A stretch of DNA of 64,000 bases, taken from positions 48,328-112,327 of the forward strand of contig JAHCAW010000001.1 in assembly GCA_019634695.1 (NCBI GenBank), read 5' to 3'. Position numbers and translations under genes: made by a program. The notes below the pieces were generated by a model. That model ran no database searches. It worked only from the letters and a program-made list of their open reading frames with translations, and was not told the DNA's origin. This stretch comes from Candidatus Sumerlaeia bacterium. Lineage in GTDB: Bacteria > Sumerlaeota > Sumerlaeia > SLMS01 > JAHLLQ01. Shown here piece after piece: positions 15,513-41,481 of the stretch (its first letter is position 1; every line of letters starts with the position of its first letter).

Positions 15513-16571
15513 CTAGCGGCGGTAGTCGCGTTCGCGGTGACAGGGTGTGGCGCAGGTGCCCCCCGTCTCGGTGACGTCGAATCGCAGCTCACCCTCCCAG
15601 GCGCCGAAGGTAATCGAGGATCGAATCAGGTGTGGCGTGTCAGTCGCATGGGCAGTGTGACAGACGTGGCACGCTCGCCCGCGCTTGAGCTGCAGGACGT
15701 GGACGCGATGGAGGTTGTCGCGGCCGTTGCGGAACCGCGTGGCGGCGCCGGCCGGATGTGCTTCGACCAGGGACGGCTCGTGGCATTGCCAGCACAGCCC
15801 ATAGTTCTCGCGGCGGTAGGTCTCATAGGCACCGGTCGGGTAATTGTCCTTCAGAAGGCTCGGCTGCATCGACCCATGCGGCGTGTGACAGGCGTGGCAC
15901 AGTGCCTCGCGCAGCGGTGGATGCACGACGGCCAGCTCGCGGATTTCGCGGCCGACGTTTTCCAGACGGCGACCGTGCGACTGGATCGCCATGTCGTGGC
16001 AGGTGAGGCAGGTCTCTCCCAGATTGGCGCGCATGTAGCCGGAGCCGGCGCCCTGATGCGCATGGTGACAGGAGCCGCATTCGCCGGCCGGATCGAAGTG
16101 CCCGTGACGATGCGGGCGTTCGGCGGCACGGGCCAGGTCTTCGGCGTGGCACTCGGCGCAGGAAGTCAGGTGCTGCTCGGTGCGCAGCAGATTGCGGACG
16201 GTGCTGCGATGGGGCTCGTGACAGGAGGTGCAGGACTGGGCGCCGGGCGGGTGCGCGACGTGGTTCCCGGCGACTTCGATGTCGGTGTGACAGGCAAGGC
16301 ACACTTGGGGCTGTGGCTTGGTGATCGGGGCCTTGGAATCGGGCGCATGGTCGCCGTGGCAGCGGTCGCACCACTGCTCGAGGAAGGCGGGGTGATCGAT
16401 GGCGCCGGGCTGGCGCGGCGGTGTCGGATGACAGTCGCTGGCCGTGCAGGACTTGTTGTAATGCGTGTCGTTGGGGGCGCCGACGCCGCTGCGGGCAAGG
16501 CCCAGGGCGCCGATGGCGGCGGCCAGCACCAGCACGACGGCGCGCTTGCGCGGCCCGGCGGGGGTCTTCAT
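15513..16571 (-). CDS. Periplasmic multiheme cytochrome c with 11 motifs (9 CXXCH + N-terminal CX4CH + C-terminal CX3CH)
   Basis: Start at MKTPAG with a strong GGAGGGAGGGAGGAG RBS and a signal peptide. Motifs are CTASDCH, CDRCH, CLACH, CTSCH, CAECH, CGSCH, CLTCH, CHACH, CWQCH, CHVCH and CATPCH. It is a paralog of 31054..32391. Confidence 0.9.
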   Translation of the reverse strand: MKTPAGPRKRAVVLVLAAAIGALGLARSGVGAPNDTHYNKSCTASDCHPTPPRQPGAIDHPAFLEQWCDRCHGDHAPDSKAPITKPQPQVCLACHTDIEVAGNHVAHPPGAQSCTSCHEPHRSTVRNLLRTEQHLTSCAECHAEDLARAAERPHRHGHFDPAGECGSCHHAHQGAGSGYMRANLGETCLTCHDMAIQSHGRRLENVGREIRELAVVHPPLREALCHACHTPHGSMQPSLLKDNYPTGAYETYRRENYGLCWQCHEPSLVEAHPAGAATRFRNGRDNLHRVHVLQLKRGRACHVCHTAHATDTPHLIRSSITFGAWEGELRFDVTETGGTCATPCHRERDYRR

Positions 16572-16708
16572 CTCCTCCCTCCCTCCTCGGGGGAACCCTT
16601 CTTGCTCCTTGGGGGAGGCAAGCGGGTCCACGTCCGGTCAGTCCCCGTTCTTGTAGCAAGCCGCTCTCCATCGGGCGCGAACGGGGTCCACCCAAGGAAG
16701 GTCACGTG

Positions 16709-18289
16709 ATGAGCGAGAATCCCTCTGCCCCGTCCGCGAGCGCGCCGACTCCGGCGCCGCCGCCGTTGTCGCGCAACCTGATCAGCTATCTCGGCTGGGT
16801 CGTCGTGGTCGTCGTGACGGTGCTGATTGTCGTGTTGGTCACGTCGGACATCCTGTTCCATCGGGAGAATCCGTACAACAGCGTCGTGACGTATCTGGTG
16901 CTGCCGGGCGTGCTGGGCGGCGGCGTGGGGTTGATTCTGCTGGGGGTTCTGGTGGAATGGTATCGCCGGCATCGGCGGGAACCGGGCACGTACCCGACGT
17001 TGCCGACGATCGATCTGAACCTGCACTGGCAACGCCGTCGCCTGATGATCGGGGCGGTGCTGATGAGTCTGTTCTTCGGTGGCTCGGCCATCGGCGTCTA
17101 CCAGTCGTACCACTATACCGAGTCGCCCGAATTCTGCGGGCTCGTCTGCCATAGTGTGATGAAGCCCGAGTACGAAGCCTACCAGCACTCGCCTCACGCG
17201 CGGGTTCTGTGCACGGAGTGTCACATTGGCGGCGGGGCCGATTGGTACGTGAAGTCGAAGATGTCGGGGCTGCGGCAGGTTGTGGCGATGGTGACACAGA
17301 GCTACGAGCTGCCGATCAAGACGCCGGTGCACAACCTGCGGCCGGCGCGCGACACATGCGAGGAGTGCCACTGGCCTGGCAAGTTCAGCGGTTCGAGGGA
17401 GCGGGAGATCTGGCACTTCTCGCCGGACCAGTCGAACACGGCGTTGCGGTACAACCTGCTGATGAAGGTCGGCGGCGGCGAACCCGAGGTCGGCCAGGGT
17501 CACGGCATTCACTGGCACATCAGCTCGGCGGTGACGGTGCGCTACTGGCCGCGCGACGAGCAGCGGCTCGACATCCCGTGGGTCGAGGTCACGGTCGCCG
17601 ACGGCGCCCCGCGCATCTTCCGCTCGCCGGACTTCGCCGGTCAGGATCCCCCGGAGACCGAAATCCGCACGATGGACTGCATCGACTGCCACAACCGGCC
17701 GGCGCACATCTACAAGTCCCCGCGCCACCTGGTGGACCAGTCGCTGGCCGGCGGGCTGCTCGACTCCTCGTTGCCCTACGTTCGGCGCCAGGCGGTGCGG
17801 GTGCTCGAGGCGCGCCACGCCTCGACCGAAGAGGCCCTGGCCGCCATCGAAGCCGACTTCCGCGCCCAGTACGCGACCCGCATGCAGGGCGAAAAGGGAC
17901 GCGAACTCGTCGAGAGCAACATCGCCTGGCTTCAGCGCCTCTACGAGCGCAACTTCTTCCCCGAGCAGAAGGTCGACTGGCGCACCTACCCCAACCACCT
18001 CGGCCACTTCGAGTTCCCCGGCTGCTATCGCTGCCATGACGACAAGCACGCCACCGTCACCGGCGAGACCATCTCCAACAACTGCAACCTCTGCCACGAC
18101 ATGATCGATCAGGCCGAGGGCGAGGCGGCCTACCGCGCGTCCACCTACCACGCCGCCCCGTTCAATCACCCGCGCGGGCTCGGCGACGTCTGGATCGGCC
18201 GCAACTGCACCGACTGCCATGGGCTCGAAGGCGAGCCGCTCCGCGAAGTCACCCACCTGTCCTCCGGATCCCATCCCCCCGCCCGGTAA
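16709..18289 (+). CDS. ImcH-like inner-membrane multiheme cytochrome (3 TM helices, NapC/NirT-like region, 7 heme motifs)
   Basis: RBS AAGGAAGG. There are three N-terminal hydrophobic helices, followed by EFCGLVCH (CX3CH), CTECH, CEECH, CIDCH, CYRCH, CNLCH and CTDCH. Confidence 0.8.
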   Translation: MSENPSAPSASAPTPAPPPLSRNLISYLGWVVVVVVTVLIVVLVTSDILFHRENPYNSVVTYLVLPGVLGGGVGLILLGVLVEWYRRHRREPGTYPTLPTIDLNLHWQRRRLMIGAVLMSLFFGGSAIGVYQSYHYTESPEFCGLVCHSVMKPEYEAYQHSPHARVLCTECHIGGGADWYVKSKMSGLRQVVAMVTQSYELPIKTPVHNLRPARDTCEECHWPGKFSGSREREIWHFSPDQSNTALRYNLLMKVGGGEPEVGQGHGIHWHISSAVTVRYWPRDEQRLDIPWVEVTVADGAPRIFRSPDFAGQDPPETEIRTMDCIDCHNRPAHIYKSPRHLVDQSLAGGLLDSSLPYVRRQAVRVLEARHASTEEALAAIEADFRAQYATRMQGEKGRELVESNIAWLQRLYERNFFPEQKVDWRTYPNHLGHFEFPGCYRCHDDKHATVTGETISNNCNLCHDMIDQAEGEAAYRASTYHAAPFNHPRGLGDVWIGRNCTDCHGLEGEPLREVTHLSSGSHPPAR

Positions 18290-18295
18290 GCCGCC

Positions 18296-19914
18296 ATGGC
18301 ACCGATCGACAGCCGTCCACGCACCCGTCCGGCCAGCTCCCGCAGCAAGAGCGCTCCAAAGCTCTCCTTGCCTGAGGGGCCCGGTGTGACAGACAAGTCA
18401 CACCACGACGCCGCCAAGAGGTCCCGGACGGCCATGCAGGCTTCCCACGCTCCCGCCTTCGCGTCTCCCCATGGCATGATGGGCGAGCTGCCGCCGCCAT
18501 TGCGCCTCTATCTCGACGCCCAGCCGCGCCGCGTCCGCATGTTTGCAGAAGACCTTCGCGTAATCTGGTGCAACCGCCCCGACGGCCTCGAGGATCGCCT
18601 GCGCTTCCCCGCCCCCGACGGGCCGACCGTTCCGGCAACCGGCAGCGACCGCGAGCGCTGGCCGGTCACCCGGGTTCTGGAGGGAGCGCCTCGCGCCTCG
18701 CGCCTCTACACCGTCCAGCATCTGCCCGAAGGATGCCAGCGCCCCGAGTTCGCCTTCCTGCGCGTCACCGCCTGGCCGATCCAGACGCCGCATGGCCTGC
18801 TCGTCATCGAGGAGACCGAGACGGTCGACGCGCCCGAGGAGGACGCGCATCGTCTCGGCCACCTCGACCAGAGCATCGAGGATCTGCTGCACCATGTGTT
18901 GACCGGCTTGAACCGTGGGGCCGACGTGCCGCACCTGCGCCTGGAGAATCCGGCGGTCGAAGTTTGCGACGGCGTGCGGCGCTGCACGGGCGAATCGTGC
19001 GCCGGCAACGGGCGTTCGCGCTGCTGGGAGCTGTCCCAATTGACGGCGGCCGAGCGCGAAGCCGCCGGCCTGCTCGAGCACTTCGAGGCGTGCAGTCGTT
19101 GCCCGGTCTTCGGGGCTGCCTCGCCCGATCCGCTTATCCGCATCTCGGAGAACTTCAACCGGCTGCTGTCGCTGCTCGAGGTCAAGCACGCCGAGAGCCT
19201 GGACGTTCAGCACCGCATGCAGCAGGCCGACAAGCTGGCCATCATGGGCGAGCTGCTGGCCAGCATCGCGCACGAGATCAAGAACCCTCTGGGCATCATC
19301 ATCGGGCGGATCGACGTCCTGGGCCTTGAGATGGACGCCATCACGCCCGGAGAACTCGCCGGCGACCTGCGCACCATTCAGGACCAAGCCGACCGCGTGC
19401 GCCAGATCGTCGACCACCTGCTGCGCATGGCCCGCCCCGAGCCCCCGGACTTCCACCCGGTGAACCTCAATGCCGTCGTCAACGACTGCCTGGCGATGGT
19501 GCGCAAGAACCTCACCGACCGCCGCATAGCGGTCGTCACGCGGCTGGCACCCGAGCTGCCCGACATTCAGGCCGACCGCATCCAGATGCAGCAGGTGCTG
19601 CTGAACCTGATCCTGAACGCGCGCGACGCGATGGACGAGGGCGGCAAACTGACGATCGCGACCAGTCTCGACGTGCCGCATCCGGCAGGCGTGCGCGTGG
19701 TGGTGTCGGACACCGGCATCGGCATCCCGGCCGATCGGCTGACGAAGCTCTTCTCCTCGTTCCACACGACGAAGCTCGAGCGCGGCGGCACGGGCCTGGG
19801 CCTGGCGGTCTGCCGCCGCATCATGGCGGCGCATCATGGCCGGATTCACGCCGAGAGCGTCGCCGGCCGCGGCACGACGATGCGCCTGTGGCTGCCCGTC
19901 GACAGGAGGGTCGC

Positions 19915-19918
<4 letters not shown>
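18296..19918 (+). CDS. Cytoplasmic sensor histidine kinase with a Cys-rich sensory region
   Basis: Carries the H-box LLASIAHEIKNPL, N-box LNLILNARDA and G-boxes DTGIGI / GTGLGLAVCRRI, with no TM helices. The true start may be downstream (ATG 18434 or 18476), because the first about 45 codons are low-complexity and contain a palindrome. Confidence 0.8.
18383..18404. promoter_or_regulatory. Perfect palindrome GGTGTGAC-N6-GTCACACC (candidate operator/UAS)
   Basis: Read directly. The same TGTGAC-N6-GTCACA core recurs at 26871-26890 in clearly non-coding DNA. Confidence 0.4.
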
Positions 19919-21396
<1,478 letters not shown>

Positions 21397-21717
21397 GGCA
21401 CGCTCCCACGACCTCGCCCGCACGCGCCCGAAACCGGGTGAGGCTTTCCCGTCACAGTCCAGCCCCTCCACAGCCTCTGCTCCCTTTCGCGCGACTTCGG
21501 CCGGTCGTCGCAGCATTGCCGCCATTGAACTTGCGAATCGACCTCTCCCAAATTCCCCGTCGGGGAAGGATTTTGCTATTCTCTTCCAAGTGTTCGCTGC
21601 TTCGCGGGGGACGTGTGCCCGAAGACCAATCCGGTGTCGGTCGCTCGATCGGGTCCCATACCTCCGCCCCATTCATCGGGTCGTCGGAAACGTGTGCTGA
21701 GAGGGAGGCGCGCCGAG

Positions 21718-24700
21718 ATGAGAACCCTTCGAATCGCTCAAGCTGTCCGTGCGGTGATCCTGACCGTGCTGCTGGGGCTTCTGACCGCCCCGGCGCTGGC
21801 GCAGGCCATTGGCCGCGTGGAGGTTATGTCGGTTACACCGCGCATGGTCGCGGCGGATCCGAACGACATCTTCGACGAGGTCGCCTCGGGCCTCAACGTC
21901 GTGGGCGTCGAAGAGAAGGTCTACCTGTCGGCCATGGCGCTGCCCGGGCAGACGCTCGGCGGGGCGACCTGGGTGCTGCGCAGCCGGCCCGGCGAGTCCA
22001 ACGCCGCCCTGAGTGACACGACGGGCACACTCGTGACGCTGGTTCCCGACGTCTCGGGACTCTACATCGTCGAGCTGACTCCGCTCAATGCCTCGAACCA
22101 ACCGACCACCGTCGTTCGCCAGCGCATCTACGCCGGCGTCTGGGTCGGCGCCGGCGTCTTCAACACCCACGCCGATCCGAATCCGACGATCCCATCGTGT
22201 GCCAACGCCTGCTGCCACGCGGAGAGCAACGTCCCGCGCCTCAACGTCGTCGACCGCTGGCTCGACAGCAAGCACGCCACCACCCTGCAAGCGCACCTCA
22301 ACGGCGAGCGCGGCAACCACACCACCGAGTCGTGTCTGCCCTGTCACAGCGTCGGCTTCAAGAAGTCGGCCGACAACCGGGGCTTCGACGACATCGCCTT
22401 CGACCTTGGATTCGACCTCGCCCAGATCGCCACGCTCGTTCAGGACGCCGTCGCCAACGGCAACCAGAACTTCCACGTCCTTCCCGCCGCCCTTCAGAAC
22501 CACGCCTCCGTGCAGTGCGAAAGCTGCCACGGACCCGGCTCGCACCACCTCGGCGCGATCCTGGAACCGGACCGCGGCATCGCCGGCGTCAACCTCGACA
22601 CCAAGCAGTGCGCCCAGTGCCACGACTCGGCCTCGGGCTTCCAGCAGGGATTCTATCAGTGGAACGCCTCCTCGCATCCGATCACCGCGGACCTGAGCCA
22701 GGGCAACGTGGCGACGAACAACACGTGCCGGCCCTGTCACACCGGCGAAGGCTTCGTCTACGGCATGGTGCGCGGCGAGCCGATCCCGCAACTCGGCGCC
22801 GGCCAGTACCACGGCATCACCTGCTCGAGTTGCCATGACCCGCACGGCTCCGAGCACCCGCACCAGATTCGCATCTCGGGCGCCGTGACGCTGCCCAGCG
22901 GCCACGTCTTCGAGACCGCCGGCAAGGGCGGCCTGTGCGCCAAGTGCCACAACACGCGCTCGACCAACGGCGACAACACCGCCATCACCAGCTTCCGCGG
23001 CGCCCACTACGGCCCGCAGGCCGACGTCCTTCTCGGCGTCAACATGGCCCACTTCAACCTGCCCGTCTACGATAACTCCGCCCACACCACCATCGTGAAG
23101 GACACCTGCGTGACCTGTCACATGGCGCCGGGCGTCGGCGGTGGACCGGGCCAGACGACGCCGCCGCTCGTTGGCGAGCACACCTACTCCATGCGCGACG
23201 ACCGCGGCACGGCCGACCCGTCCGACGACATCATCAACGCTGCCAACGCCTGCGCCTCCTGCCATCCCGAGCTGACCGACACGTACAACCGGCTCGCCCG
23301 TGGCGACTATGACGGCGACGGCGTGCGCGAAGGCATCCAGACCGAGGTCGAGGGCCTGCTGGCCCTGCTGCGTCCCGGCCTGCTCGCCCTGCCCGGTGCC
23401 AGCTTGAGTGCCTCCGGCACGATCAGCGTCACCCAGGCCAACTGGAACACTTGGTCTCAGGACCAGCGCCGCGCGGTCTACAACCACAACATGGCCGTCA
23501 ACGACAAGAGCCGCGGCATCCACAACACCTCGTTCACGGTGCAGAGCCTCCAGCGTTCGTACTTCGGCGCCTACGGCCGCACGATCACGGACGACTTCCC
23601 CAAGATCGACCTGCGCGGCCCCGTGCAGCCGACCTCGATCGTTCCGCCAACCCCGTCGCCGACTCCTGTCCCCACGCCGACCCCGGTGCCGACCCCGGTG
23701 CCCGAATACCTGGCCGTGATCGACCTCGTCGGCGTGTCGCCGCGCACGGTGGACACCGACACCTCCGGCAGGTTCGACGAGGCCGCGACAGGCCTGCGGG
23801 CCGTCGGCGTTGGCGAGAAGGTCTACATGCAGGCGCGCAAGGTGGACAACGCGGTGATCTCGTACCGCTGGAGCATCCTGAGCCGTCCGTCGGGTTCGAC
23901 CGCCGGCCTCAGCGCCACCACCGGCGAGGCCATCACCTTCCGGCCCGACCGCCGCGGCGTCTACATCGTGCGCCTGACTCCGGAGACTTCCGGCAAGGCC
24001 GTCATCGACGTTTACGACCAGCGCATCTACGCCGCCGACTTCGTGGGTGTCGGCAAGATCGATCCCGAGTCGACCGTCGCGCCGCGGGCGCCGCAGTGCG
24101 GCACCGGCTTCTGCCACGGCGGAGACAGCGGCAACGCCGACCTCAACGTGCTGCAGGACTGGCTCCAGACCAAACACGCCAGCAAGCTGCAACGCGACCT
24201 CAACGGCGAGACCGTCGCCTTCTACTCGGTCTCGTGCCTGCCCTGCCACACGGTCGGCTTCAACGACCACTTCCAGGCGATCAACAACGGCTTCGACGAC
24301 ATCGCCACGCGGCTGTCGTTCGACCTGAACCAGATCCCGGCGCTCGTTGCCGACGCCCGCCAGAACGGCAACCGCAACTTCAACCAGTTGCCGGCCGAGC
24401 TGCAGGGCCACTCCTCCGTGCAGTGCGAGAGCTGCCACGGCGCCGGCTCGCTGCATCCGTCGAACCTGACGGCGGCCGACAAGGGCATCGACGGCGCGAA
24501 CCTCGGCTTCTCGGCGTGCGCCAAGTGCCACGACTCGGCCTCGGGCTTCCAGCAGGGCTTCTACCAGTGGAGCAGCTCGTCGCACCCGGTGACGGCGGAC
24601 CTGAGCCAGGGTAGCGTCGCGGCCAACAACACCTGCCGGCCGTGCCACACCGGCGAGGGCTTCGTCGCGGTGTATGGCGACGGCAAGCCGATCCCGCAGC

Positions 24701-25581
24701 TCGCCAACCACGAATACCACGGCATCACCTGCTCGGCCTGTCACGATCCGCACAGCGCGAAGAATCCGCACCAGTTGCGGGCGTGGGGCGACTTCGTGAT
24801 TCCGTCGGGCACGCGGCCGTACGGCTCCGGCACCGGCGGCACCTGCTTCCGCTGCCACAACTCGCGCATCGCCAACGCGGAGACCACTTCGCAGACGAGT
24901 TTCCGCGGGGCGCACTACGGAACCCAGGGCGACATGCTGCTCGGCTCGACCGGTGTGTCGTTCGGCCTGCCGTTCTCGCCGAACTCGCCGCACCTTGCCA
25001 CCGTGGACAACACCTGCACGGCCTGTCACATGGCGGAGACGCCGCTGTCCGGGCCGGGCATCATCGAGACGCCGCTTGTCGGCGGACACACCTACTCGAT
25101 GCGCGACACCCGCGGCACGGCCGATCCGTCCGACGACATCATCAACGTGGCCAACGCCTGCCAGCAGTGCCACCTGACGCTCGACAGCTACGACTATCCG
25201 GCGCGGGGCGACTACGACGGCAACGGCATCGTCGAGGGCACGCAGACCGAGGTCGCCGGGCTGCTGCTGATGCTGCGCACCGGCATCCTGGCCACCATGC
25301 CCGGGACGACGGCCAACGCCGCCGGGCGCATCAGCGTCACCACCGCCGCCTTCAGCCAACTGACTCCGGACCAGAAGCGCGCGCTGTACAACTACAACTT
25401 CGTCCATGCGGACGGCAGCCTGGGCGTGCACAACACGGCCTACGCGGTGCAGTTGCTCCAGCGCTCGTACTACGGCGTCTACGGGGTGTCGATCCTGGTC
25501 GACTTCCCGAACATCCACCTGCGCGGCCCCGTGCAGGAACCGATCCCGCGCCCGTCAAGGGACCAATGGCGCGTGCGCTGA
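21718..25581 (+). CDS. Secreted giant multiheme cytochrome c: 18 heme motifs, two homologous halves joined by a Pro/Thr linker
   Basis: The signal peptide is MRTLRIAQAVRAVILTVLLGLLTAPALAQA. Each half carries one CX4CH (CANACCH / CGTGFCH) plus 8 CXXCH. The linker is PPTPSPTPVPTPTPVPTPVP. Confidence 0.9.
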   Translation: MRTLRIAQAVRAVILTVLLGLLTAPALAQAIGRVEVMSVTPRMVAADPNDIFDEVASGLNVVGVEEKVYLSAMALPGQTLGGATWVLRSRPGESNAALSDTTGTLVTLVPDVSGLYIVELTPLNASNQPTTVVRQRIYAGVWVGAGVFNTHADPNPTIPSCANACCHAESNVPRLNVVDRWLDSKHATTLQAHLNGERGNHTTESCLPCHSVGFKKSADNRGFDDIAFDLGFDLAQIATLVQDAVANGNQNFHVLPAALQNHASVQCESCHGPGSHHLGAILEPDRGIAGVNLDTKQCAQCHDSASGFQQGFYQWNASSHPITADLSQGNVATNNTCRPCHTGEGFVYGMVRGEPIPQLGAGQYHGITCSSCHDPHGSEHPHQIRISGAVTLPSGHVFETAGKGGLCAKCHNTRSTNGDNTAITSFRGAHYGPQADVLLGVNMAHFNLPVYDNSAHTTIVKDTCVTCHMAPGVGGGPGQTTPPLVGEHTYSMRDDRGTADPSDDIINAANACASCHPELTDTYNRLARGDYDGDGVREGIQTEVEGLLALLRPGLLALPGASLSASGTISVTQANWNTWSQDQRRAVYNHNMAVNDKSRGIHNTSFTVQSLQRSYFGAYGRTITDDFPKIDLRGPVQPTSIVPPTPSPTPVPTPTPVPTPVPEYLAVIDLVGVSPRTVDTDTSGRFDEAATGLRAVGVGEKVYMQARKVDNAVISYRWSILSRPSGSTAGLSATTGEAITFRPDRRGVYIVRLTPETSGKAVIDVYDQRIYAADFVGVGKIDPESTVAPRAPQCGTGFCHGGDSGNADLNVLQDWLQTKHASKLQRDLNGETVAFYSVSCLPCHTVGFNDHFQAINNGFDDIATRLSFDLNQIPALVADARQNGNRNFNQLPAELQGHSSVQCESCHGAGSLHPSNLTAADKGIDGANLGFSACAKCHDSASGFQQGFYQWSSSSHPVTADLSQGSVAANNTCRPCHTGEGFVAVYGDGKPIPQLANHEYHGITCSACHDPHSAKNPHQLRAWGDFVIPSGTRPYGSGTGGTCFRCHNSRIANAETTSQTSFRGAHYGTQGDMLLGSTGVSFGLPFSPNSPHLATVDNTCTACHMAETPLSGPGIIETPLVGGHTYSMRDTRGTADPSDDIINVANACQQCHLTLDSYDYPARGDYDGNGIVEGTQTEVAGLLLMLRTGILATMPGTTANAAGRISVTTAAFSQLTPDQKRALYNYNFVHADGSLGVHNTAYAVQLLQRSYYGVYGVSILVDFPNIHLRGPVQEPIPRPSRDQWRVR

Positions 25582-25597: not shown

Positions 25598-25626
25598 GGG
25601 GCGGGCGAGAGCCCGCCCCTTTCCTC
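25598..25626 (+). terminator. Intrinsic terminator-like hairpin after the giant cytochrome gene
   Basis: ggggcgggc gaga gcccgcccc followed by tttcctc: a 9-bp GC stem, a tetraloop and a T-rich tail. Confidence 0.6.
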
Positions 25627-25654: not shown

Positions 25655-26110
25655 GTGACACCGCGCGACCGCACTCGCTGCGTGCTGGTGGTCGGAGGCG
25701 ACGAGAAGCTTCGCACCCGCCTCTCCCGGTGCCTGCTGCATCTGGGCTGCAACGAGTGCGACTACGACCCGGACGAGGTCGCCTCGGCCGACTTTTGGCG
25801 CGAGCGTCCCTGCGCCCCCGCCGCGGTGGTCATCGATCTGCGCGAGGGCTTCGAGCCCGGCCGTGCCGTCCTGCAAGCTCTCAAGCGCGCCCGCATCGAC
25901 TCGCCCGTCATCGTCCTTACTCCCGACTTCTCCCGCGAGTTCGGAACGAAAATTGTATCTCTTGGCGTCAGTTACTGTCTGGCCCGCGACTGCGACGACG
26001 GCGAACTGCTCGAAGCGCTGACCGGTTTGATCGATCCGCCGGGAACCGACTCCCGGTCTTCCACCCGGAAGAACATCCCATCGTCCGAGCCCCCGACACC
26101 ACGGAGGTGA
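25655..26110 (+). CDS. Stand-alone atypical receiver (REC-like) domain protein
   Basis: GTG start after GGGAGGAGG. The beta1 strand is CVLVVGGDE, beta3 is AAVVIDL and beta4 is VIVLTP, but the conserved Lys-Pro of beta5 is replaced (YCLARD). Confidence 0.55.
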   Translation: MTPRDRTRCVLVVGGDEKLRTRLSRCLLHLGCNECDYDPDEVASADFWRERPCAPAAVVIDLREGFEPGRAVLQALKRARIDSPVIVLTPDFSREFGTKIVSLGVSYCLARDCDDGELLEALTGLIDPPGTDSRSSTRKNIPSSEPPTPRR

Positions 26111-26113
26111 CCC

Positions 26114-26764
26114 GTGCCCCCACTCATGAGACCCCTTTCGCGAGGCGCCCTGCTGGCCTCCGCCCTTGTCGTTGGGGCACTTCTGGTGCCGCGACCCACG
26201 CCGTCGGCCATCGAGGGATCCGCCCACGACTTCTCCGCCGTCGATCCCAGCCAGCAGATCTGCATCTTCTGCCACACGACGCACCGCGCCGACACCTCCG
26301 TCGTCGACGCCCCGCTGTGGAACCACGCGGTCACCAACCGCACGTACCAGCTCTACAACAGCCCGACGCTCGACGCGACGGTCTCGCAGCCCTCGGGCGC
26401 CTCGCGACTGTGCCTCTCCTGTCACGATGGCACGGTGGCCGTGGATTCCTACGGCGGACGCGCCGGCGTCATCTTCCTGGGCGGCCGGTTGGCGATCGGT
26501 GCCGACGAGTTGACCAACGACCACCCGGTCTCGTTCCTCTACGACGACGCGCTGGCGGCGGCCGACGGCGAGCTGCACCGCCCGTCCGCAACGCCCTCGG
26601 GTCTGGGCTCCACGATCGACGACGACCTGCTGTTCAACGGCCGGCTCGAGTGCTCAAGCTGCCATGACGTGCATAACGGCGCCTCGGCCGAGGCCATCGG
26701 CGAGAAGCTCCTCGTCATCACCCAAGTGGGCAGCCAACTGTGTCTCACCTGTCACGACAAGTGA
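26114..26764 (+). CDS. Periplasmic tetraheme cytochrome c
   Basis: Has a signal peptide and the motifs CIFCH, CLSCH, CSSCH and CLTCH. The N-terminal about 100 aa (CIFCHTTH..APLWNH..LCLSCHDGTVA) is homologous to the start of 36697..38394. Confidence 0.85.
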   Translation: MPPLMRPLSRGALLASALVVGALLVPRPTPSAIEGSAHDFSAVDPSQQICIFCHTTHRADTSVVDAPLWNHAVTNRTYQLYNSPTLDATVSQPSGASRLCLSCHDGTVAVDSYGGRAGVIFLGGRLAIGADELTNDHPVSFLYDDALAAADGELHRPSATPSGLGSTIDDDLLFNGRLECSSCHDVHNGASAEAIGEKLLVITQVGSQLCLTCHDK

Positions 26765-26890: not shown

Positions 26891-27230
26891 TCGCGGGCGC
26901 CGGCCTCGGGAATGGCCCGGGGCGGGTGCATGGAGAGGGCACGCTGGGCGGACGGCGAATTCTGGTTGGCCTCGCCAGGAGTCTCCGGGATCGCGTCGGC
27001 CCTGCTCCCGGGGGAACGACAAAGCCGCACCAACCGAAAGAGTTTCAACACTCGGCAAGGCGATTGAGGGGGTGGCCGGTGGCGAACGGGCCGGTCGCTT
27101 GTGACCTGCGGGCCTCCGGCGTTCTGCGCGCCCGCTCGTCCGCCACTGAATAAGGCCCGCAAGGGGGGACTTGGGCACGATCCTTTCAAGGAAATCGGAT
27201 AATCCAAGTATTGCTTGTCGGAGGCGCTCC

Positions 27231-28337
27231 ATGTCGGCGAAATCGGCCCCCCACAGCAGGCTCCTCGGCTGGGCCGTGGCGCTGGTCGCCATTGGCCTGC
27301 TGACGGGTTGTGCGGCCTCGTCGGCGCGGTCGGTGGCCGAGGCGACGCCCGTGGTCTTCCCGGCTCCGCCGGCCCCTGCGCGCGTCCAGTACCTGGGCGG
27401 CATCTCCACGCCGGACGACCTGCCGCGGGCCCGCAGCAAGTTCGCCGACTTCGTCCTCGGCCCGGAGCCGACCAGCTACCCGCTGGCCAAGCCGATCAGC
27501 GCGACGCTGCAGGGTTCCCGCCTGTACGTGTGCGACACGGTGCTGAACTCGGTGCTGGTCTACGACCTGGTCAGCGGGGAGGCGCGTCCGCTGGAGGGCG
27601 ACCGCGGGATCGGCAAGATTCGCCAGCCGAACAACCTGTGCTTCGACAGCGCCGGGCGCCTGTACGTGGCGGACAAGGTGCGGCAGGCGGTGGTGGTGTA
27701 CAATCCGGACGAGTCGTTTCTTGCGGCGTGGGGTCGGCCGGGCGAGTTCGCGCCGGTGGCCGTGGCGGTCCACGGCGACGAGATCTTCGTGTGCGATTCG
27801 AACCGGCACGAGATCGAGGTCTGGAGCCGGCAGGACGGGTCGCGGCTTCGGACGATCGGTGGACTGGGCAACGAGCCGGGCAAGTTCTTCATCCCGACGC
27901 AGGTGGCAGTGGACGCGGGCGGGGTGCTGCACGTGACGGATACGGGCAACTTCCGCGTGCAGCGACTGACACGGACGGGCGAGCCGCTGGCCGTGGTCGG
28001 CGGACCGGGGCGGGCGTTGGGCAAGTTTGCGTGGCCCAAGGGGATGGACCTCGACGGCCGCGGGCGCCTGTACGTGGCGGACTCGCGGTTTGCGAACGTG
28101 CAGATTTTCGACGCGCAGGGGCGCCTGCTGCTGTTCTTCGGCGGGCCGGGCCCGGACGGCGGTCATCTGGACCTGCCGGCCGGCGTGCGGCTGGTTCCTT
28201 GGCCGCGCGGCGTGCCGTGGCTCGAGCAACGCCTGATGGCGGGCTTCGATCCGGAGTTTCTCGCCGTCGTCGTCAGCCAGCAGGCGCAGTACTTCGTGAA
28301 CTTCTTTGCCATCGCGCGTGAGGAGGCGTCGCCGTGA
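27231..28337 (+). CDS. NHL-repeat (six-bladed beta-propeller) lipoprotein
   Basis: Has the lipobox LLTGC. Repeated blades are of the type P.g.a.D..G.lYVaD..n..vqvfd (for example GRLYVADKVRQAVVVY and GRLYVADSRFANVQIFD). Confidence 0.85.
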   Translation: MSAKSAPHSRLLGWAVALVAIGLLTGCAASSARSVAEATPVVFPAPPAPARVQYLGGISTPDDLPRARSKFADFVLGPEPTSYPLAKPISATLQGSRLYVCDTVLNSVLVYDLVSGEARPLEGDRGIGKIRQPNNLCFDSAGRLYVADKVRQAVVVYNPDESFLAAWGRPGEFAPVAVAVHGDEIFVCDSNRHEIEVWSRQDGSRLRTIGGLGNEPGKFFIPTQVAVDAGGVLHVTDTGNFRVQRLTRTGEPLAVVGGPGRALGKFAWPKGMDLDGRGRLYVADSRFANVQIFDAQGRLLLFFGGPGPDGGHLDLPAGVRLVPWPRGVPWLEQRLMAGFDPEFLAVVVSQQAQYFVNFFAIAREEASP

Positions 28338-28930
28338 AGCGAGCCCCGGCGCGGCATCGTGCGATTGCGGCGGCGGCTGTGGTGGCCGCCGCAGTGCTCG
28401 CGGCGTCGTGCTCGCCGGAGTCGCGCTATCGCGTGCTGAGCGCCGTGTTCGACGGCGTGCCGCCGCCGGCGGGATTCGAGACGCCCGCGCCGGGCATCGT
28501 CGTTCCGTCGGTCGAGGTGCCCGGCAGCGGATTCCTCGACGACCTGCGCACGCTGCGCGAGCAGCGCCCGCCGCGCGACACCACGCCCGTGATCCTGTCC
28601 GTCCACAAGCCGGTGGCCGAGCGCAAGTGCCGCGAGTGCCACGGCGATCCCGAGGACGTCGCGATCATCCCGCACGACGCCCGCCTGTGCGACAAGTGCC
28701 ACCTGGACCAGCGCCGCGAGCAGGGCTGGGACCACGGACCGATCAATCTGGGCACGTGCATTCCGTGTCACACGCCGCATCGCTCGCGTCACAAGAGCCT
28801 GCTCTCCGAGCCGCTGCCCGACCTCTGCCTGCACTGCCACAAGGACGTGTCGCCCGACGGGCCCGACTACCACGTCGTCGCGAACTTCGCCGACTGCAGC
28901 GCGTGCCACGATCCCCACCGGATGTATTGA
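28334..28930 (+). CDS. Pentaheme cytochrome c lipoprotein
   Basis: Its start forms a GTGA overlap with the NHL gene. It has the lipobox LAASC and the motifs CRECH, CDKCH, CIPCH, CLHCH and CSACH. Confidence 0.85.
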   Translation: MKRAPARHRAIAAAAVVAAAVLAASCSPESRYRVLSAVFDGVPPPAGFETPAPGIVVPSVEVPGSGFLDDLRTLREQRPPRDTTPVILSVHKPVAERKCRECHGDPEDVAIIPHDARLCDKCHLDQRREQGWDHGPINLGTCIPCHTPHRSRHKSLLSEPLPDLCLHCHKDVSPDGPDYHVVANFADCSACHDPHRMY

Positions 28931-28931
28931 G

Positions 28932-31031
28932 ATGCCCCAGGATTCCGTTCCACGCTCCCGTCACTCCGCGCCCGGCATGCACGCCGCCCTGGTGGGGCTT
29001 GTGTTGCTGCTGGTCGCCGCGGCATGGGCGGAGCCCTACGAGGACCGCTGCTATCGGTGCCATGGGCAGAGCTGGATCGCGCAGCGCAGCCCGACGGCGC
29101 TGGCCGCGATGGTGCGCGCGCCCGAGGGCGGAGAGCGCCGCATTCGCGACGTGTCGGAGATTCCGGGACTGCTGGTGACGGGCGAGGCGTTCGCCGCCTC
29201 GGCGCACGGCGGCCTGGCGTGCACGGAGTGCCATCCGGGCGTCGACACGCTGCCGCACAACCAGGTGGTCGCCAGCCTGTCCTGCGTGGCCTGCCATGCG
29301 GGCGCGGCGAACGACGTGGCCATGGGGATGCACGCGCCGACGGTGGAGGGAACGCCGAACTGCGCGCACTGTCACGGCGATGCCCATGCGATTCGCAAGT
29401 ACGGCGGGCCGCGGACGTACACGCGGGCGATCGAGATGGTCGAGCGCTGCTCGGCCTGTCACGGCGACGTGTCGCACGGCAAGTTCTCGCCGGCCGAGAC
29501 GTTCCACGACAGCATCCACGGCGAGGCGCTGTTCAAGAAGGGGCTGGTCTCGGCGCCGATGTGCACGGACTGCCACGGGCCGCACGCGATGTTCACGGCC
29601 GCGGATCCCCGCAGCCCCGTGCATCCGCTGAATGTTCCCGAGACATGCGGCGCGTGCCATCAGGGCGTGGTGCCGGTGTTCCTGAACAGCGTGCACGGGC
29701 GCAACCTTCTGGCCGGGCGCGCCGACGCGGCGTCGTGCACGAGCTGCCACCACAGCCACGGCGTGGCCGGCGCGGACACGACCTTCGCGATCGACGTGGT
29801 GGCCGAGTGCTCGCACTGCCACATCAAGCTGGGCGAGTCGTACCTGCGCAGCTATCACGGCAAGGCGACGCAACTCGGCGGGCGCAACGCGGCGGTCTGC
29901 TCGAAGTGCCACGGCGCGCACGACATCCAGCCGGCGTCGGATCCGACGTCGAGGATTGCCGCCGGCAACCTGGTGGCGACCTGCGGCGAGTGTCACCCGG
30001 GCGCCAACGAGAACTTCGTCAAGTACATCGCGCACGTCGACTACACGGATCGCTCGCAGAATCCGGTGGTCTTCTTCACCTTCTGGGGCATGACGATCCT
30101 GCTGTGCAGCGTGCTGCTGGTGTTCATCCCGCACTCGCTGCTCTGGTTCCAGCGGACGCTGGGCGAGCGGCTGCGCTCGAAGGGCCACGGGCACGGTTCC
30201 GGGCGAATGGTGCGCCGGTTCAACCGCATGCACCGGCTGACGCACGCGCTGATCATCATCAGCTTCATGGGCCTTGTGGCGACGGGCTTCCCGCTGAAGT
30301 ACAGCTACACGGGCTGGGCGCAGGCGATCGCCTCGCTCTTCGGCGGCATCCACGCGATGGGCATCCTGCACCGGTTGTTCGCCGTGGTGACGTTCGCCTA
30401 CGCGGGTCTGCACCTGGGCTTCCTTGCGTGGTTCTTCTGGAGGAAGTGCCCGGCGCCGCGTTGGCGCTACATCATCGGGCCGGACTCGATGCTGTTCTCG
30501 CTGAAGGACTTCAAGGACTTCATCGCGATGATGAAGTGGTTCTTCCGCCGGGGACCGCGGCCGCAGTTCGACCGCTGGGCATACTTCGAGAAGTTCGACT
30601 ACTGGGGCGAGATCTGGGGCGTGATCGTCATCGGCGGCAGCGGCCTGCTGCTCTGGTTCCCGACGCTGTTCACGAAGGTGCTGCCCGGCTGGATTCTCAA
30701 CGTCGCGATGGTGATTCACAGCATCGAGGCGCTGCTGGCCGCGTCGGTGATCTTCCTCGTCCACTTCTTCAACACGCACCTGCGGCCGGAACGCTTCCCG
30801 ATCGACCTGACGATGTGGAGCGGCCAGATGACCGAGGAGGAGATGAAGATCGAACGGCCTGCCGAGTACGCGCGGCTGGTCGAGTCCGGTGCGCTCGAGG
30901 AACGACTCGAGGAGCCCATCTCCGCCCGGCGCCGCCTGCTCGGCATTGTCCTGGGCATGACCGCCTTCCTGATCGGCATCGCCTTGATCGTCCTGGCGAT
31001 CCAGACCGAAATCCTCAACCTCGTCAAGTGA
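28932..31031 (+). CDS. CbcL-like fusion: 11-heme periplasmic cytochrome c domain + C-terminal His-rich integral-membrane b-type cytochrome domain (HydC/FdnI-like)
   Basis: There are 11 CXXCH motifs in aa 1-375. About 5 TM helices with conserved histidines follow (IPHSLLWF, MHRLTHALII, ILHRLF..GLHLGF, VIHSIEALL..LVHFFNTH). Confidence 0.8.
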   Translation: MPQDSVPRSRHSAPGMHAALVGLVLLLVAAAWAEPYEDRCYRCHGQSWIAQRSPTALAAMVRAPEGGERRIRDVSEIPGLLVTGEAFAASAHGGLACTECHPGVDTLPHNQVVASLSCVACHAGAANDVAMGMHAPTVEGTPNCAHCHGDAHAIRKYGGPRTYTRAIEMVERCSACHGDVSHGKFSPAETFHDSIHGEALFKKGLVSAPMCTDCHGPHAMFTAADPRSPVHPLNVPETCGACHQGVVPVFLNSVHGRNLLAGRADAASCTSCHHSHGVAGADTTFAIDVVAECSHCHIKLGESYLRSYHGKATQLGGRNAAVCSKCHGAHDIQPASDPTSRIAAGNLVATCGECHPGANENFVKYIAHVDYTDRSQNPVVFFTFWGMTILLCSVLLVFIPHSLLWFQRTLGERLRSKGHGHGSGRMVRRFNRMHRLTHALIIISFMGLVATGFPLKYSYTGWAQAIASLFGGIHAMGILHRLFAVVTFAYAGLHLGFLAWFFWRKCPAPRWRYIIGPDSMLFSLKDFKDFIAMMKWFFRRGPRPQFDRWAYFEKFDYWGEIWGVIVIGGSGLLLWFPTLFTKVLPGWILNVAMVIHSIEALLAASVIFLVHFFNTHLRPERFPIDLTMWSGQMTEEEMKIERPAEYARLVESGALEERLEEPISARRRLLGIVLGMTAFLIGIALIVLAIQTEILNLVK

Positions 31032-31053: not shown

Positions 31054-32391
31054 ATGAACAGCCCCCTGACGCGATTCAGCCTCCTGCTGGCGATCACCCT
31101 GCTCGCGCTGGCGCTGCAAGGCCCGGCGCGCGCCAACACGCAGATCACGCTCGGCGCCTCGTGCGTGACCGGCGAGTGCCACGGCGACGTGACCGCGCAT
31201 CAGTTCCTGCACGGCCCCGTCAACCTGAAGCAGTGCCAACCCTGCCACGAACCCATCGGCGGCCGGCACGAGTTCGCACCGCTGACCGACAGTCGCAGCC
31301 TGTGCATCACCTGCCACGAGGTGGACCAACCGAAGGCCTTCGTCCATGGACCGTTTCAGACCGACTGCGTGGTCTGTCACAGTCCGCACGGCGACTCGAA
31401 CCGGCACTTCGTCAAGGGGGGCGAGGGAGCGGCCTCGTGCACCATGTGCCATGACAGCGTGACGCGCGGCATGACGCACCTGCACGGGCCGGTGGCCGTC
31501 GGCGAGTGCCTCGTCTGCCACGAGCCGCACCAGTCGAACCACAAGGGCCTGCTGATCGACGCGCGCCCGCAGCTCTGCATGGGATGTCACATCGACGTGG
31601 CGCACGAGATCGAGCGCGCGGTGGTCGTGCACCAGCCGGTCGAGATGGAATGCGCCGGCTGCCACAATCCGCACGGCGGCACGGCGGCGTTCTTCCATCC
31701 GGCCGAGGGCCCGGACCTGTGCCGCTCGTGCCATGGCGGCTTCCTCGAGGAGGCCATGCAGGCTCCCTTCCCGCACGGCGCGATGACCGAAGGCAAGGCC
31801 TGCCAGAATTGCCACGCTCCCCATGCCTCGGCCCAGCAGGGCCTGCTTGGCACGGACACGATGGACCTTTGTCTCTCGTGCCACAGCTCCGAGATTCGCC
31901 ATGCACGCGGCACGATTCCCAACATCGCGGCGCAGCTTTCCTCGGCGACGTTCCTGCACGGTCCGATCAGCGAGCGCAACTGCGTCGCCTGCCACAAGGC
32001 GCACGGCTCCGACGTCGCCAGCATCCTGACGAAGCCCTTCCCGCGCGAGTTCTACGCGCCCTACAAGGAGGGTGCCTACGACATGTGCTTCGAGTGCCAC
32101 GACAACACGCTTGTGCTGAACGAGCGCAGCACCGCCACGCAGTTCCGCGACGGCGACCGCAACCTGCACTTCCTGCACGTCAATCGCGAGAAGGGGCGCA
32201 CCTGCCGGGCCTGTCACTCCGAGCACGCCTCCGTGCAGCCCCACCACGTTCGCACCGAAGTTCCGTTCGGCCGCTGGATGATGAAGGTCCAGTTCACGAA
32301 GACGGAGACCGGCGGAACGTGCGAGACGGGCTGCCACATTCCGTACGGGTACGACCGCGTGCGGCCGGCGGCGGGGAGCACGACGCCATGA
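31054..32391 (+). CDS. Periplasmic multiheme cytochrome c with 15 motifs (13 CXXCH + N-terminal CX4CH + C-terminal CX3CH)
   Basis: Has a signal peptide, then CVTGECH, 13 CXXCH and a final CETGCH. The C-terminal block RDGDRNLHFLHV..CRACH..TGGTCETGCH parallels that of 15513..16571. Confidence 0.9.
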   Translation: MNSPLTRFSLLLAITLLALALQGPARANTQITLGASCVTGECHGDVTAHQFLHGPVNLKQCQPCHEPIGGRHEFAPLTDSRSLCITCHEVDQPKAFVHGPFQTDCVVCHSPHGDSNRHFVKGGEGAASCTMCHDSVTRGMTHLHGPVAVGECLVCHEPHQSNHKGLLIDARPQLCMGCHIDVAHEIERAVVVHQPVEMECAGCHNPHGGTAAFFHPAEGPDLCRSCHGGFLEEAMQAPFPHGAMTEGKACQNCHAPHASAQQGLLGTDTMDLCLSCHSSEIRHARGTIPNIAAQLSSATFLHGPISERNCVACHKAHGSDVASILTKPFPREFYAPYKEGAYDMCFECHDNTLVLNERSTATQFRDGDRNLHFLHVNREKGRTCRACHSEHASVQPHHVRTEVPFGRWMMKVQFTKTETGGTCETGCHIPYGYDRVRPAAGSTTP

Positions 32392-38471: not shown

Positions 38472-38560
38472 TGGTGGACGGGAGTGGGTTCGAACCACTG
38501 TAGGGTGTTATACCCGCCAGATTTACAGTCTGGTGCCATTAACCACTCGGCCACCCGTCC
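38472..38560 (-). tRNA. tRNA-Tyr (anticodon GTA), class II with long variable arm, CCA encoded
   Basis: The reverse complement is GGACGGGTGGCCGAGTGGTTAATGGCACCAGACTGTAAATCTGG...AGTGGTTCGAACCCACTCCCGTCCACCA. The acceptor, anticodon and T arms all pair. Confidence 0.9.
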
Positions 38561-38588
38561 ACAAAGAGAAACAGACTCCGGAAGAGCA

Positions 38589-38664
38589 TGGTGCTGGTGA
38601 TGGGACTCGAACCCGCAACCGCCTGATTACAAATCAGGTGCTCTGCCAATTGAGCTACACCAGC
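38589..38664 (-). tRNA. tRNA-Thr (anticodon TGT), CCA encoded
   Basis: The reverse complement is GCTGGTGTAGCTCAATTGGCAGAGCACCTGATTTGTAATCAGGCGGTTGCGGGTTCGAGTCCCATCACCAGCACCA. It folds as a cloverleaf with one C-A mismatch in the T stem. Confidence 0.85.
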
Positions 38665-41408: not shown

Positions 41409-41481
41409 GGCCGGCAGGGTGCCACATCTGCACCCGACCAAGACAAGCGGGAAACGAATCGCAAGGATTATGACGATTCGG

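Follow-up and report, generated by a model that had tools for sequence, protein, structure and literature searches.

Microbial metal respiration and bioelectrochemical devices are wired by multiheme cytochromes, and how evolution lengthens heme chains is an active question. The subject here is a gene for a cytochrome c with 18 heme motifs, on the forward strand of a 64,000-nucleotide (nt) stretch of contig JAHCAW010000001.1 from a Candidatus Sumerlaeia bacterium; the whole stretch is called the window below. Among described cytochromes, the MtrC, OmcA and MtrF proteins have ten hemes, in two pentaheme domains (II and IV) that alternate with beta-barrel domains (I and III), and MtrC-type proteins are thought to derive from internal duplication of a pentaheme unit. 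In GSU1996 of Geobacter, which has four c7-type triheme domains, and in HmcA, heme number has been raised by tandem repeat of a smaller module. OcwA of Thermincola potens and OmhA of Carboxydothermus ferrireducens are cell-surface terminal reductases of Gram-positive metal reducers.

OcwA is a nonaheme terminal reductase of iron oxides located at the cell surface, with heme packing like that of NrfA and c554 (PMC6703420, PMC9250108). It has two five-coordinate hemes, forms a loose non-covalent dimer, and reduces nitrite and hydroxylamine in vitro (PMC6703420). OmhA is an 11-heme S-layer-associated cytochrome (6QVM; PMC9250108). The enzymes of the NrfA family are oligomers joined through their C-terminal helices (PMC6703420). 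Repetition of modules is a known route to large multiheme cytochromes. The modular evolution of such proteins has been discussed, and cores of the OcwA type are known to gain and lose parts (PMC9250108, bioRxiv 10.1101/2025.05.29.656830).

The window protein consists of two copies of one module in a single chain, and the copies date from one old tandem duplication. It shares with GSU1996 and HmcA the tandem repeat, but its repeat unit is very large (~635 amino acids, aa) and includes a non-heme PKD domain and a long Pro/Thr-rich linker, and orthologues with one, two and three units coexist. With MtrC, OmcA, MtrF and the MtrCAB system it would share a surface role in a cluster with an MtrA/DmsE-like multiheme protein. 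Unlike those proteins, it has nine hemes per module, an NrfA-like fold and heme packing rather than the 'staggered cross', and no MtrB-type porin recognised in its cluster. The NCBIfam models for OmcA/MtrC and DmsE score far below their cut-offs on the 18-heme protein, and matches to Pfam MtrC/MtrF II-IV (PF22113) cover short heme-motif stretches only.

An 18-heme protein of two modules

The gene has the following features (window coordinates, strand, description):

21718..25581, +, whole gene, a 1287-aa two-module cytochrome c with 18 heme motifs
21718..21801, +, Sec signal peptide, aa 1-28, read from the sequence, with a putative cleavage site between ...TAPALA and QA
21808..22152, +, module 1 predicted PKD/Ig-like beta-sandwich, ~aa 31-145 (AlphaFold2, Foldseek, family profile)
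22153..23628, +, module 1 nine-heme core, aa 146-637
22198-22218, +, module 1 heme 1, C-A-N-A-C-C-H, with the extra Cys165 specific to module 1
22333, 22516, 22609, 22726, 22822, 22936, 23107, 23251, +, starts of the module 1 CXXCH motifs
22627-22662, +, module 1 SASGFQQGFYQW
22996-23013, +, module 1 RGAHYG
23305-23322, +, module 1 DxDxDG loop (DYDGDG, aa 530)
23515-23529, +, module 1 GIHNT (aa 600), within the C-terminal three-helix bundle
23629..23703, +, Pro/Thr-rich inter-module linker PTSIVPPTPSPTPVPTPTPVPTPVP, 25 residues, aa 638-662
23704..24051, +, module 2 predicted PKD/Ig-like domain, ~aa 663-778, which aligns to the module 1 N-domain
24052..25536, +, module 2 nine-heme core, aa 779-1273
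24097-24117, +, module 2 heme 1, C-G-T-G-F-C-H
24235, 24424, 24517, 24634, 24730, 24844, 25015, 25159, +, starts of the module 2 CXXCH motifs
24535-24570, +, module 2 SASGFQQGFYQW
24904-24921, +, module 2 RGAHYG
25210-25227, +, module 2 DYDGNG (aa 1165)
25423-25437, +, module 2 GVHNT (aa 1236)
25537..25578, +, 'W-tail' EPIPRPSRDQWRVR at the C-terminus, in which the Trp four residues from the end is conserved

A ribosome-binding site, GGGAGG, is located 9-14 nt 5' of the ATG. The N-termini of homologues are comparable to the signal peptide, and no lipobox cysteine was found at the N-terminus of the 18-heme protein. A motif search reproduced the count of 18 hemes in the preliminary description of this locus, with one CX4CH (CANACCH at aa 161, nt 22198; CGTGFCH at aa 794, nt 24097) and eight CXXCH motifs per half, or two and sixteen in the protein. 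The search, which included C..CK, found no CXXCK motif, the form of the NrfA catalytic heme with its Lys proximal ligand. The Pro/Thr linker described between the halves was located after the end motif of the module 1 core, LRGPVQ, and close two-module homologues (e.g. P0001, P0003, P0004) also have Pro/Thr-rich linker sequences where their modules meet. The DYDGDG/DYDGNG pair and the (I/V)HNT tail pair were likewise recovered in the two halves. The loops, DYDGDGVREG in module 1 and DYDGNGIVEG in module 2, are putative Ca2+-binding sites, and their D/D/G/G positions are invariant among two-module homologues. To call the protein a 'giant', as was done at first, is an overstatement – the window also encodes 11-, 11-, 12- and 15-heme proteins, and a 27-heme three-module relative exists.

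The N-terminal domain of each module is predicted to be PKD/Ig-like, with the seven-stranded PKD topology. The AlphaFold2 model of module 1, made from a 77-sequence alignment, has a mean predicted local distance difference test score (pLDDT) of 89.9 and a predicted template modelling score (pTM) of 0.89. Its first ~115 residues form a seven-stranded beta-sandwich (strand pLDDT 93-98), in agreement with the beta-sandwich-like N-domain originally described. The best Foldseek matches of this sandwich are PKD domains (2YRL, AAVR PKD, ColH/ColG PKD) at probability 1.0, with target-normalised template modelling (TM) scores of 0.62-0.67 for the best matches and 0.53-0.67 over the top set. The family profile matches the KIAA0319-like PKD domain. 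At the sequence level, the window protein scores 14.1 against a 27-bit Pfam cut-off, with a weak Pfam match to K319L-like PKD at aa 705-758 of module 2, and the relative P0029 has E = 5e-05. The heme domain of the module 1 model is mostly irregular and helix-poor, ending in a bundle of three long helices (512-528, 553-568 and 576-591 in module numbering).

Age of the duplication

The two halves of the protein are homologous and co-linear, with 335 of 625 positions identical (54%; 644 bits, E = 0; BLASTP). The whole module of ~1.9 kb, beta-sandwich and nine hemes together, was duplicated in tandem and in frame, as the preliminary description proposed. The halves are 65.5% identical in DNA sequence overall and are connected by seven long direct-repeat pairs with a spacing of 1899, 1902, 1905 or 1908 nt. 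The string GTGCAGTGCGA occurs exactly twice in the window (22510 and 24418; chance expectation 0.09), at the 1908-nt offset first noted.

A hidden Markov model built from the two halves of the window protein served to excise modules from 120 homologues, and 50 modules were placed in a neighbour-joining tree (Kimura protein distances, 100 bootstraps). The module-1 copies of the window protein and of 12 homologues (proteins 48-76% identical to it) form one clade with 92% bootstrap support, while the module-2 copies of the ten closest proteins form a separate clade with 86%. The module-1 and module-2 sub-trees of these 13 proteins mirror each other, each tracking species relationships, and the two modules of the window protein itself were sisters in 0 of 100 replicates. 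Because of the mirrored clades and the absence of any sister pairing in the window protein, the two modules are traced to a single old tandem duplication, which took place before the radiation of the Sumerlaeota-like clade to which the protein belongs.

The preliminary description had instead suggested a recent duplication, or homogenisation of the copies by gene conversion, under which the two-module state would be young and possibly transient in the source genome. The block of ~85% DNA identity on which this was based does exist. The most alike stretch of the halves (22576-22758 versus 24484-24666) is 84% identical over 183 nt, and in a 48-codon core of 86% the paralogous modules of the window (0.861) are slightly more alike than the orthologous modules of the window and its closest orthologue (0.826 and 0.792). 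That orthologue (P0001, locus L001, from a Candidatus Sumerlaeota metagenome-assembled genome, MAG) is 76% identical over 99% of the length of the protein. However, its own paralogous modules are 81% identical in the same block, which encodes a strongly conserved motif, CHDSASGFQQGFYQW…CRPCHTGEGFV, kept in each of the four modules compared. Of the 41 residues that are identical there, 30 also agree in their codon, where the codon usage of the gene alone predicts 26.7. The block is explained by amino-acid conservation and by codon bias at G+C in the third position, and the gene-conversion reading of it was rejected. Over the whole modules, third-codon-position identity is 0.613 between the halves of the window protein and 0.587 and 0.620 between the orthologous modules of the window and L001; it is alike in paralogues and orthologues, and synonymous sites are therefore saturated in both.

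The identity between modules within one protein ranges from 0.46 to 0.62 among homologues, which would allow for occasional local conversion in some lineages. For the window protein, the low overall DNA identity, the saturated third positions, the codon counts and the module tree have already largely refuted a recent origin or conversion, which we consider extremely improbable. An assembly artefact is excluded by the 65.5% DNA identity of the halves and by the presence of the same two-module design in at least 13 independent assemblies.

Divergence between module-1 and module-2 copies

Both types of module have evolved equally fast and under similar purifying selection, with a mean pairwise identity of 0.593 among module-1 copies and 0.583 among module-2 copies. 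All 18 heme motifs, and all eight conserved non-motif histidines per half, are intact in the window protein. In the alignment of the 13 proteins, 150 columns are conserved (in at least 12 of 13) in both module types, and 147 of these have the same residue in both. The three fixed differences all lie within the heme-1 loop, which reads I-P-x-C-x-N-x-C-C-H in module 1 and A-P-x-C-x-T-x-F-C-H in module 2 and in single-module relatives.

The extra cysteine of module 1 is conserved and stands immediately before the second heme-attachment cysteine, where module 2 and the single-module proteins have Phe. It might change how the heme is ligated or at what potential it works, or provide a thiol-based site. 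Module 1 appears to be the derived copy, because module 2 shares its form of the heme-1 loop with the single-module relatives. In the neighbour-joining tree, single-module proteins group with the module-2 types in 66% of replicates, and an exclusive clade of module-1 and module-2 types was found in 2%. Either module 1 changed faster early on, or the single-module proteins lost their module 1 secondarily; the result is compatible with both.

Related proteins and their export signals

With module 1 as the query, a full HMMER scan over 1.84 billion representative proteins gave 1714 matching clusters at E <= 1e-3, and 290 at the stricter E <= 1e-30. Proteins of the same two-module architecture are already present in public databases as 'hypothetical protein'. 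A survey of module number found one-, two- and three-module forms, and single nine-heme modules dominate among the family sequences examined.

Multi-module forms arose repeatedly and independently, the clade of the window protein being one case. The modules of P0021 are sisters in 100% of replicates, the P0020/P0024 group has its own multi-module origin (100%), and P0014 is another multi-module form outside the clade of the window protein. P0002 is the three-module, 27-heme protein, and its modules are mutual closest relatives (98%). In P0026, P0123 and P0143, the second copy has no PKD domain.

Single-module members in KSB1, Ignavibacteria and Calditrichaeota (P0029, P0041, P0074 and many others) carry C-terminal sorting domains of the type IX secretion system (T9SS). 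Because of these domains, these relatives are predicted to be exported to the cell surface.

The 18-heme protein has a different C-terminus, the W-tail, which is also present in two other secreted proteins of the window:

10394-11317, +, 307-aa signal-peptide protein without a Pfam match, with W-tail
55786-58503, +, 905-aa S13 D-Ala-D-Ala carboxypeptidase with a Golvesin_C domain, signal peptide and W-tail

The three tails are …SRDQWRVR in the 18-heme protein, …STTGWELYN in the 307-aa protein and …TTGSGWVLY in the 905-aa protein. Among the 301 six-frame open reading frames of at least 100 aa in the window, only the 307-aa and the 905-aa protein match the pattern W.[ILVM]Y.?$. The ending W-x-[ILVMY]-[YRF]-(x) is found in nearly all Sumerlaeota-type homologues of the 18-heme protein, even past long extra domains or a 70-aa Pro/Thr spacer. 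The W-tail has no transmembrane segment and so differs from PEP-CTERM, LPXTG and T9SS signals; it is possibly a sorting or anchoring tag, and an apparently undescribed one.

Genomic context and transcription

The 18-heme gene is the first structural gene of a conserved cytochrome cluster, beside a two-component sigma-54 pair. The G+C content of the window is 64-73%, and its genes and their similarities place it with a relative of Candidatus Sumerlaeota (BRC1). The neighbouring features are as follows:

~6 kb upstream of the 18-heme gene, system II cytochrome c biogenesis genes (ResB, CcsA; Pfam)
15513-16631, -, 11-heme DmsE-like cytochrome
16706-18289, +, 7-heme NapC/NrfH-like membrane-anchored cytochrome
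18296-19918, +, histidine kinase (Pfam)
19888-21396, +, sigma-54-dependent response regulator (Pfam)
21553..21580, +, terminator-like GC hairpin and T-run found by a scan tool, between the sigma-54 regulator gene and the start codon, ~150 nt 5' of the latter
25598..25626, +, terminator-like hairpin GGGGCGGGC-GAGA-GCCCGCCCC, then TTTCCTC
25655-26110, +, receiver-like protein
26114-26764, +, 4-heme cytochrome
27171-28337, +, NHL beta-propeller
28334-28930, +, 5-heme cytochrome
28932-31031, +, 11-heme cytochrome fused to an FdnI-like di-heme cytochrome b membrane domain
31054-32391, +, 15-heme MtrA/DmsE-like cytochrome
33255-35306, +, 683-aa secreted protein

A 12-heme cytochrome gene is next after that of the 683-aa protein. 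A tRNA-Tyr (GTA) and a tRNA-Thr (TGT) gene (38472-38664, -) stand directly after the 12-heme gene, at the end of the cytochrome island.

L001 and L006 keep the whole order from the kinase to the 683-aa protein, and L003 and L004 keep it as far as these shorter contigs reach; the L002 contig contains only the cytochrome and the 4-heme gene. The cluster neighbours are 64-83% identical to those of L001 (MAG DJKA124_ANT21_bin.23), and the L006 cytochrome (P0013) is only 50% identical to the window protein. The kinase/sigma-54 pair adjoins the cytochrome in every examined related locus that reaches far enough upstream (L001, L003, L004, L006). In L003 (3450-5615; a BRC1 MAG) and L004 (1138-3180; an unclassified MAG), a single nine-heme module is encoded at the operon position that the two-module protein has in the window, L001, L002 and L006.

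The cytochrome genes at 15513-16631 and 16706-18289 sit between the biogenesis genes and the histidine kinase. No homologues of them were found at that position in L001, where the 11-heme query matches the paralogous 15-heme gene only, and because of this the 7-heme and 11-heme genes appear to be a lineage-specific addition to the cluster. A GT4 glycosyltransferase (40236-41957, -) and a PMT_2-family protein (42733-44385, +) are encoded ~15 kb downstream of the 18-heme gene. The PMT_2 family is related to protein O-mannosyltransferases, and it is speculative that these two proteins glycosylate the Pro/Thr linker of the cytochrome.

The preliminary description considered the 18-heme gene monocistronic, with a terminator at 25598-25626. 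At that position there is a hairpin with a 9-bp all-GC stem (25598-25619) followed by UUU, in a 59-nt stretch of -30.5 kcal/mol (z = -2.4), and the L001 orthologue has an equivalent hairpin followed by UUUU. The hairpin thus stands and is echoed in L001, but with UUU only it failed the T-run rule of the scan tool. On the 5' side, a hairpin equivalent to that at 21553-21580, with TTTTTGCTA, is found at the same relative place in L001 and L006, ~100-155 nt 5' of the start; the stem sequences differ. By its place behind the gene of the sigma-54 regulator, this element looks like a terminator or attenuator. A weak GG-N9-TGC string at 21565, similar to a -24/-12 promoter, is conserved and overlaps the hairpin and T-run, and is more simply read as part of the terminator. 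A search for the sigma-54 promoter TGGCAC-N5-TTGC with at most two mismatches found no match between the regulator gene and the start codon, and matches in the whole window are below chance. Because terminator-like hairpins flank the gene, and both are echoed in orthologous loci, a separate transcript is plausible. In function, the gene clearly belongs to the cytochrome cluster, of which it is a fixed member.

Relation to OcwA and proposed role

A Foldseek search of the module-1 model against the PDB matched the PKD domain alone, with the heme core unmatched at E <= 0.001, and for this reason the homology of the heme core was set by profile-sequence search. A profile of 77 modules was searched against PDB sequences. 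It matched OcwA (6I5B) with E = 1.2e-31 (1.1e-05 for a single sequence) and OmhA with E = 4e-25, from heme 3 to the C-terminal helices. Matches to the penta- and octaheme nitrite and sulfite reductases were weaker, from NrfA (1e-12) through ONR and MccA (down to 6e-09), over the C-terminal five-heme arrangement and the helical bundle. The heme motifs of OcwA align in order with eight of the nine in a module (hemes 1 and 3-9), heme 2 being in an unaligned stretch. The region of the three C-terminal helices, with the helix start 'DGS-x-G-[VI]-HN', aligned with OcwA residues 448-499, and the S, G, H and N of this start are invariant in the family. Nine proximal histidines and eight further ones are invariant or nearly so across the family, and both window modules keep all of them. 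The motif R-G-A-H-Y, with the nearly invariant H430/H1066, lies 2-3 residues from the column of OcwA H380/H381, in a loop where the alignment is uncertain.

The window protein is thus like OcwA in having nine hemes per module, a C-terminal three-helix bundle with G-x-H-N and membership of the NrfA superfamily, and its role would likewise be at the outer end of an extracellular electron-transfer chain. Unlike OcwA, it is encoded by a host that is apparently not Gram-positive, has a PKD-like domain before each core, uses CX4CH for heme 1, and carries two modules in one chain in place of a loose non-covalent dimer (PMC6703420). The core of OmhA also accepts added modules (PMC9250108), but OmhA gained two N-terminal hemes rather than a full second module and has no PKD domain.

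We consider it on balance likely, and more probable than any of the alternatives, that the 18-heme protein serves an extracellular electron-transfer pathway as its outer or terminal conduit, probably at the cell surface. PKD domains, Pro/Thr-rich linkers and DxDxDG loops are typical of extracellular proteins. The probable surface location is argued indirectly, from the signal peptide, the T9SS tails on relatives and the cluster context. In such a pathway the cluster would form a trans-envelope electron conduit. The cytochrome b fused to 11 hemes would oxidise quinol, the 15-heme MtrA-like protein would be the periplasmic or outer-membrane conduit, and the 683-aa secreted protein, a candidate novel component, would be a possible outer-membrane partner. 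The Sec-exported two-module protein would be the outermost, probably surface-exposed, electron-distributing element, analogous to MtrC/OmcA or OcwA, and minerals, flavins, partner cells or similar acceptors outside the cell would receive electrons along its two chains of nine hemes. The duplication may double reach, contact area and exit hemes. To judge by its Pro/Thr-rich linker and PKD domains, the protein would be extended and flexible.

Several observations weigh against this reading. The 18-heme protein has no lipobox, T9SS domain or recognised anchor. The trans-outer-membrane part of the model is conjecture, because the 683-aa neighbour has no detectable porin signature; this protein has no Pfam, NCBIfam or PDB sequence match, and a porin identity for it was unsupported by these searches and is conjecture as well. 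The flexible 25-residue linker and the PKD domain between the heme cores argue against a rigid single wire. The AlphaFold2 model of both modules (aa 150-1287, 17-sequence alignment) is too poor to support any inter-module packing or heme continuity, with pLDDT 62.6, pTM 0.40 and a linker pLDDT below 50. The modules are also distant relatives of OcwA and OmhA and not members in the strict sense, with the OcwA-defining features partly present. Hemes 2 and 3 are only ~57 residues apart, in a stretch predicted to be helical, and the beta-sheet insertion of OcwA between them (aa 75-156) is absent. The column of OcwA H282 (H253 of the chain) contains Phe308 in module 1 and Phe944 in module 2, inside SASGFQQGFYQW; some relatives, e.g. 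P0013 and P0012, retain His there. Because there are eight conserved non-motif histidines for nine hemes per module, at least one heme in each may be without a His distal ligand, and so open or Met-ligated as in catalytic NrfA-family enzymes.

The histidine count, and the similarity of the profile to NrfA, ONR and MccA, also bear on the main rival reading, in which the protein is an enzyme for the multi-electron reduction or oxidation of small soluble substrates such as nitrite, hydroxylamine, sulfite or polysulfide. Its two active modules would then be fed by neighbouring cytochromes, and there would be no conduit to insoluble acceptors. Some relatives score above the Pfam Cytochrom_C552 threshold and one is named 'ammonia-forming nitrite reductase' by NCBI, the conserved R-G-A-H-Y lies near the column of the OcwA distal His pair at heme 5, and the gene at 16706-18289 encodes an NrfH-like membrane cytochrome. 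The in vitro nitrite and hydroxylamine reduction by OcwA, with its two five-coordinate hemes, points the same way (PMC6703420). Against this, the window protein differs from the NrfA-type enzymes in having no CXXCK motif, no dedicated NrfH, NrfB or NrfBCD partner adjoining its gene, nine hemes per module and probable export, and the equivalent of OcwA H282, the heme-2 distal His, is Phe in both modules. The cluster has an MtrA/DmsE-like 15-heme protein, relatives in other phyla are predicted to be surface-exported through type IX secretion, and PKD domains and a Pro/Thr linker suit surface display better than a periplasmic enzyme. A catalytic role is accordingly judged unlikely.

In another reading, the protein is not surface-exposed and would be a 'capacitor' of the periplasm, which stores or shuttles electrons between the inner-membrane cytochrome b/11-heme protein and the outer conduit. 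It has a Sec signal peptide but no recognisable signal for outer-membrane export or anchoring, several other cytochromes of the cluster could be the outer components, and many hemes on one polypeptide suit charge storage. However, homologous single modules in other phyla have T9SS sorting domains and would hence be extracellular, the conserved W-tail common to other secreted proteins hints at a dedicated sorting step, and Pro/Thr linkers and PKD domains are unusual for periplasmic redox shuttles. We regard this role as slightly less likely still than the catalytic one, and the surface conduit as the preferred reading.

Within the surface-conduit reading, the duplication could alternatively replace the homodimer of the NrfA family with a covalently tethered pseudo-dimer. 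A more specific and rather doubtful proposal is that the protein is an asymmetric tethered pseudo-dimer of an OcwA-like surface reductase, in which the N-terminal copy is neo-functionalised at the heme-1 loop only and the C-terminal copy is ancestral, and which reaches the surface by way of a previously undescribed short C-terminal 'W-x-hydrophobic-Y/R' tag common to other secreted Sumerlaeota proteins. If the pseudo-dimer proposal is true, the one-, two- and three-module orthologues of the same operon would make up a natural series for relating heme-chain length to electron-transfer reach. In the loci examined, the one- and two-module forms share their operon position, and the context of the three-module relative P0002 is outside that set. 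The heme-1 loop, as the site of all three consistent differences between the copies, is a direct mutational target.

A literature search in a limited library, made in part on titles and abstracts, found no paper describing the PKD-nonaheme family, its T9SS-exported members or its tandem forms, and none linking type IX secretion to multiheme cytochromes. Of the few Sumerlaeota papers that it yielded, none deals, by title and abstract, with an electron-transfer cluster in this phylum, and a term search of one phylum-wide genome survey (PMC8092238) found no 'heme', 'extracellular electron' or 'outer membrane', and 'iron reduction' in a reference title only.

These findings extend current ideas on multiheme cytochromes, overturn none, and offer testable material. 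The locus is a clean, conserved case in which a whole unit of ~635 residues, a PKD domain with nine hemes, was duplicated and both copies have long been kept intact. It points to an unreported extracellular electron-transfer gene cluster in the Sumerlaeota (BRC1), and to a large uncharacterised family of PKD-nonaheme cytochromes whose members in other phyla would be exported through type IX secretion.

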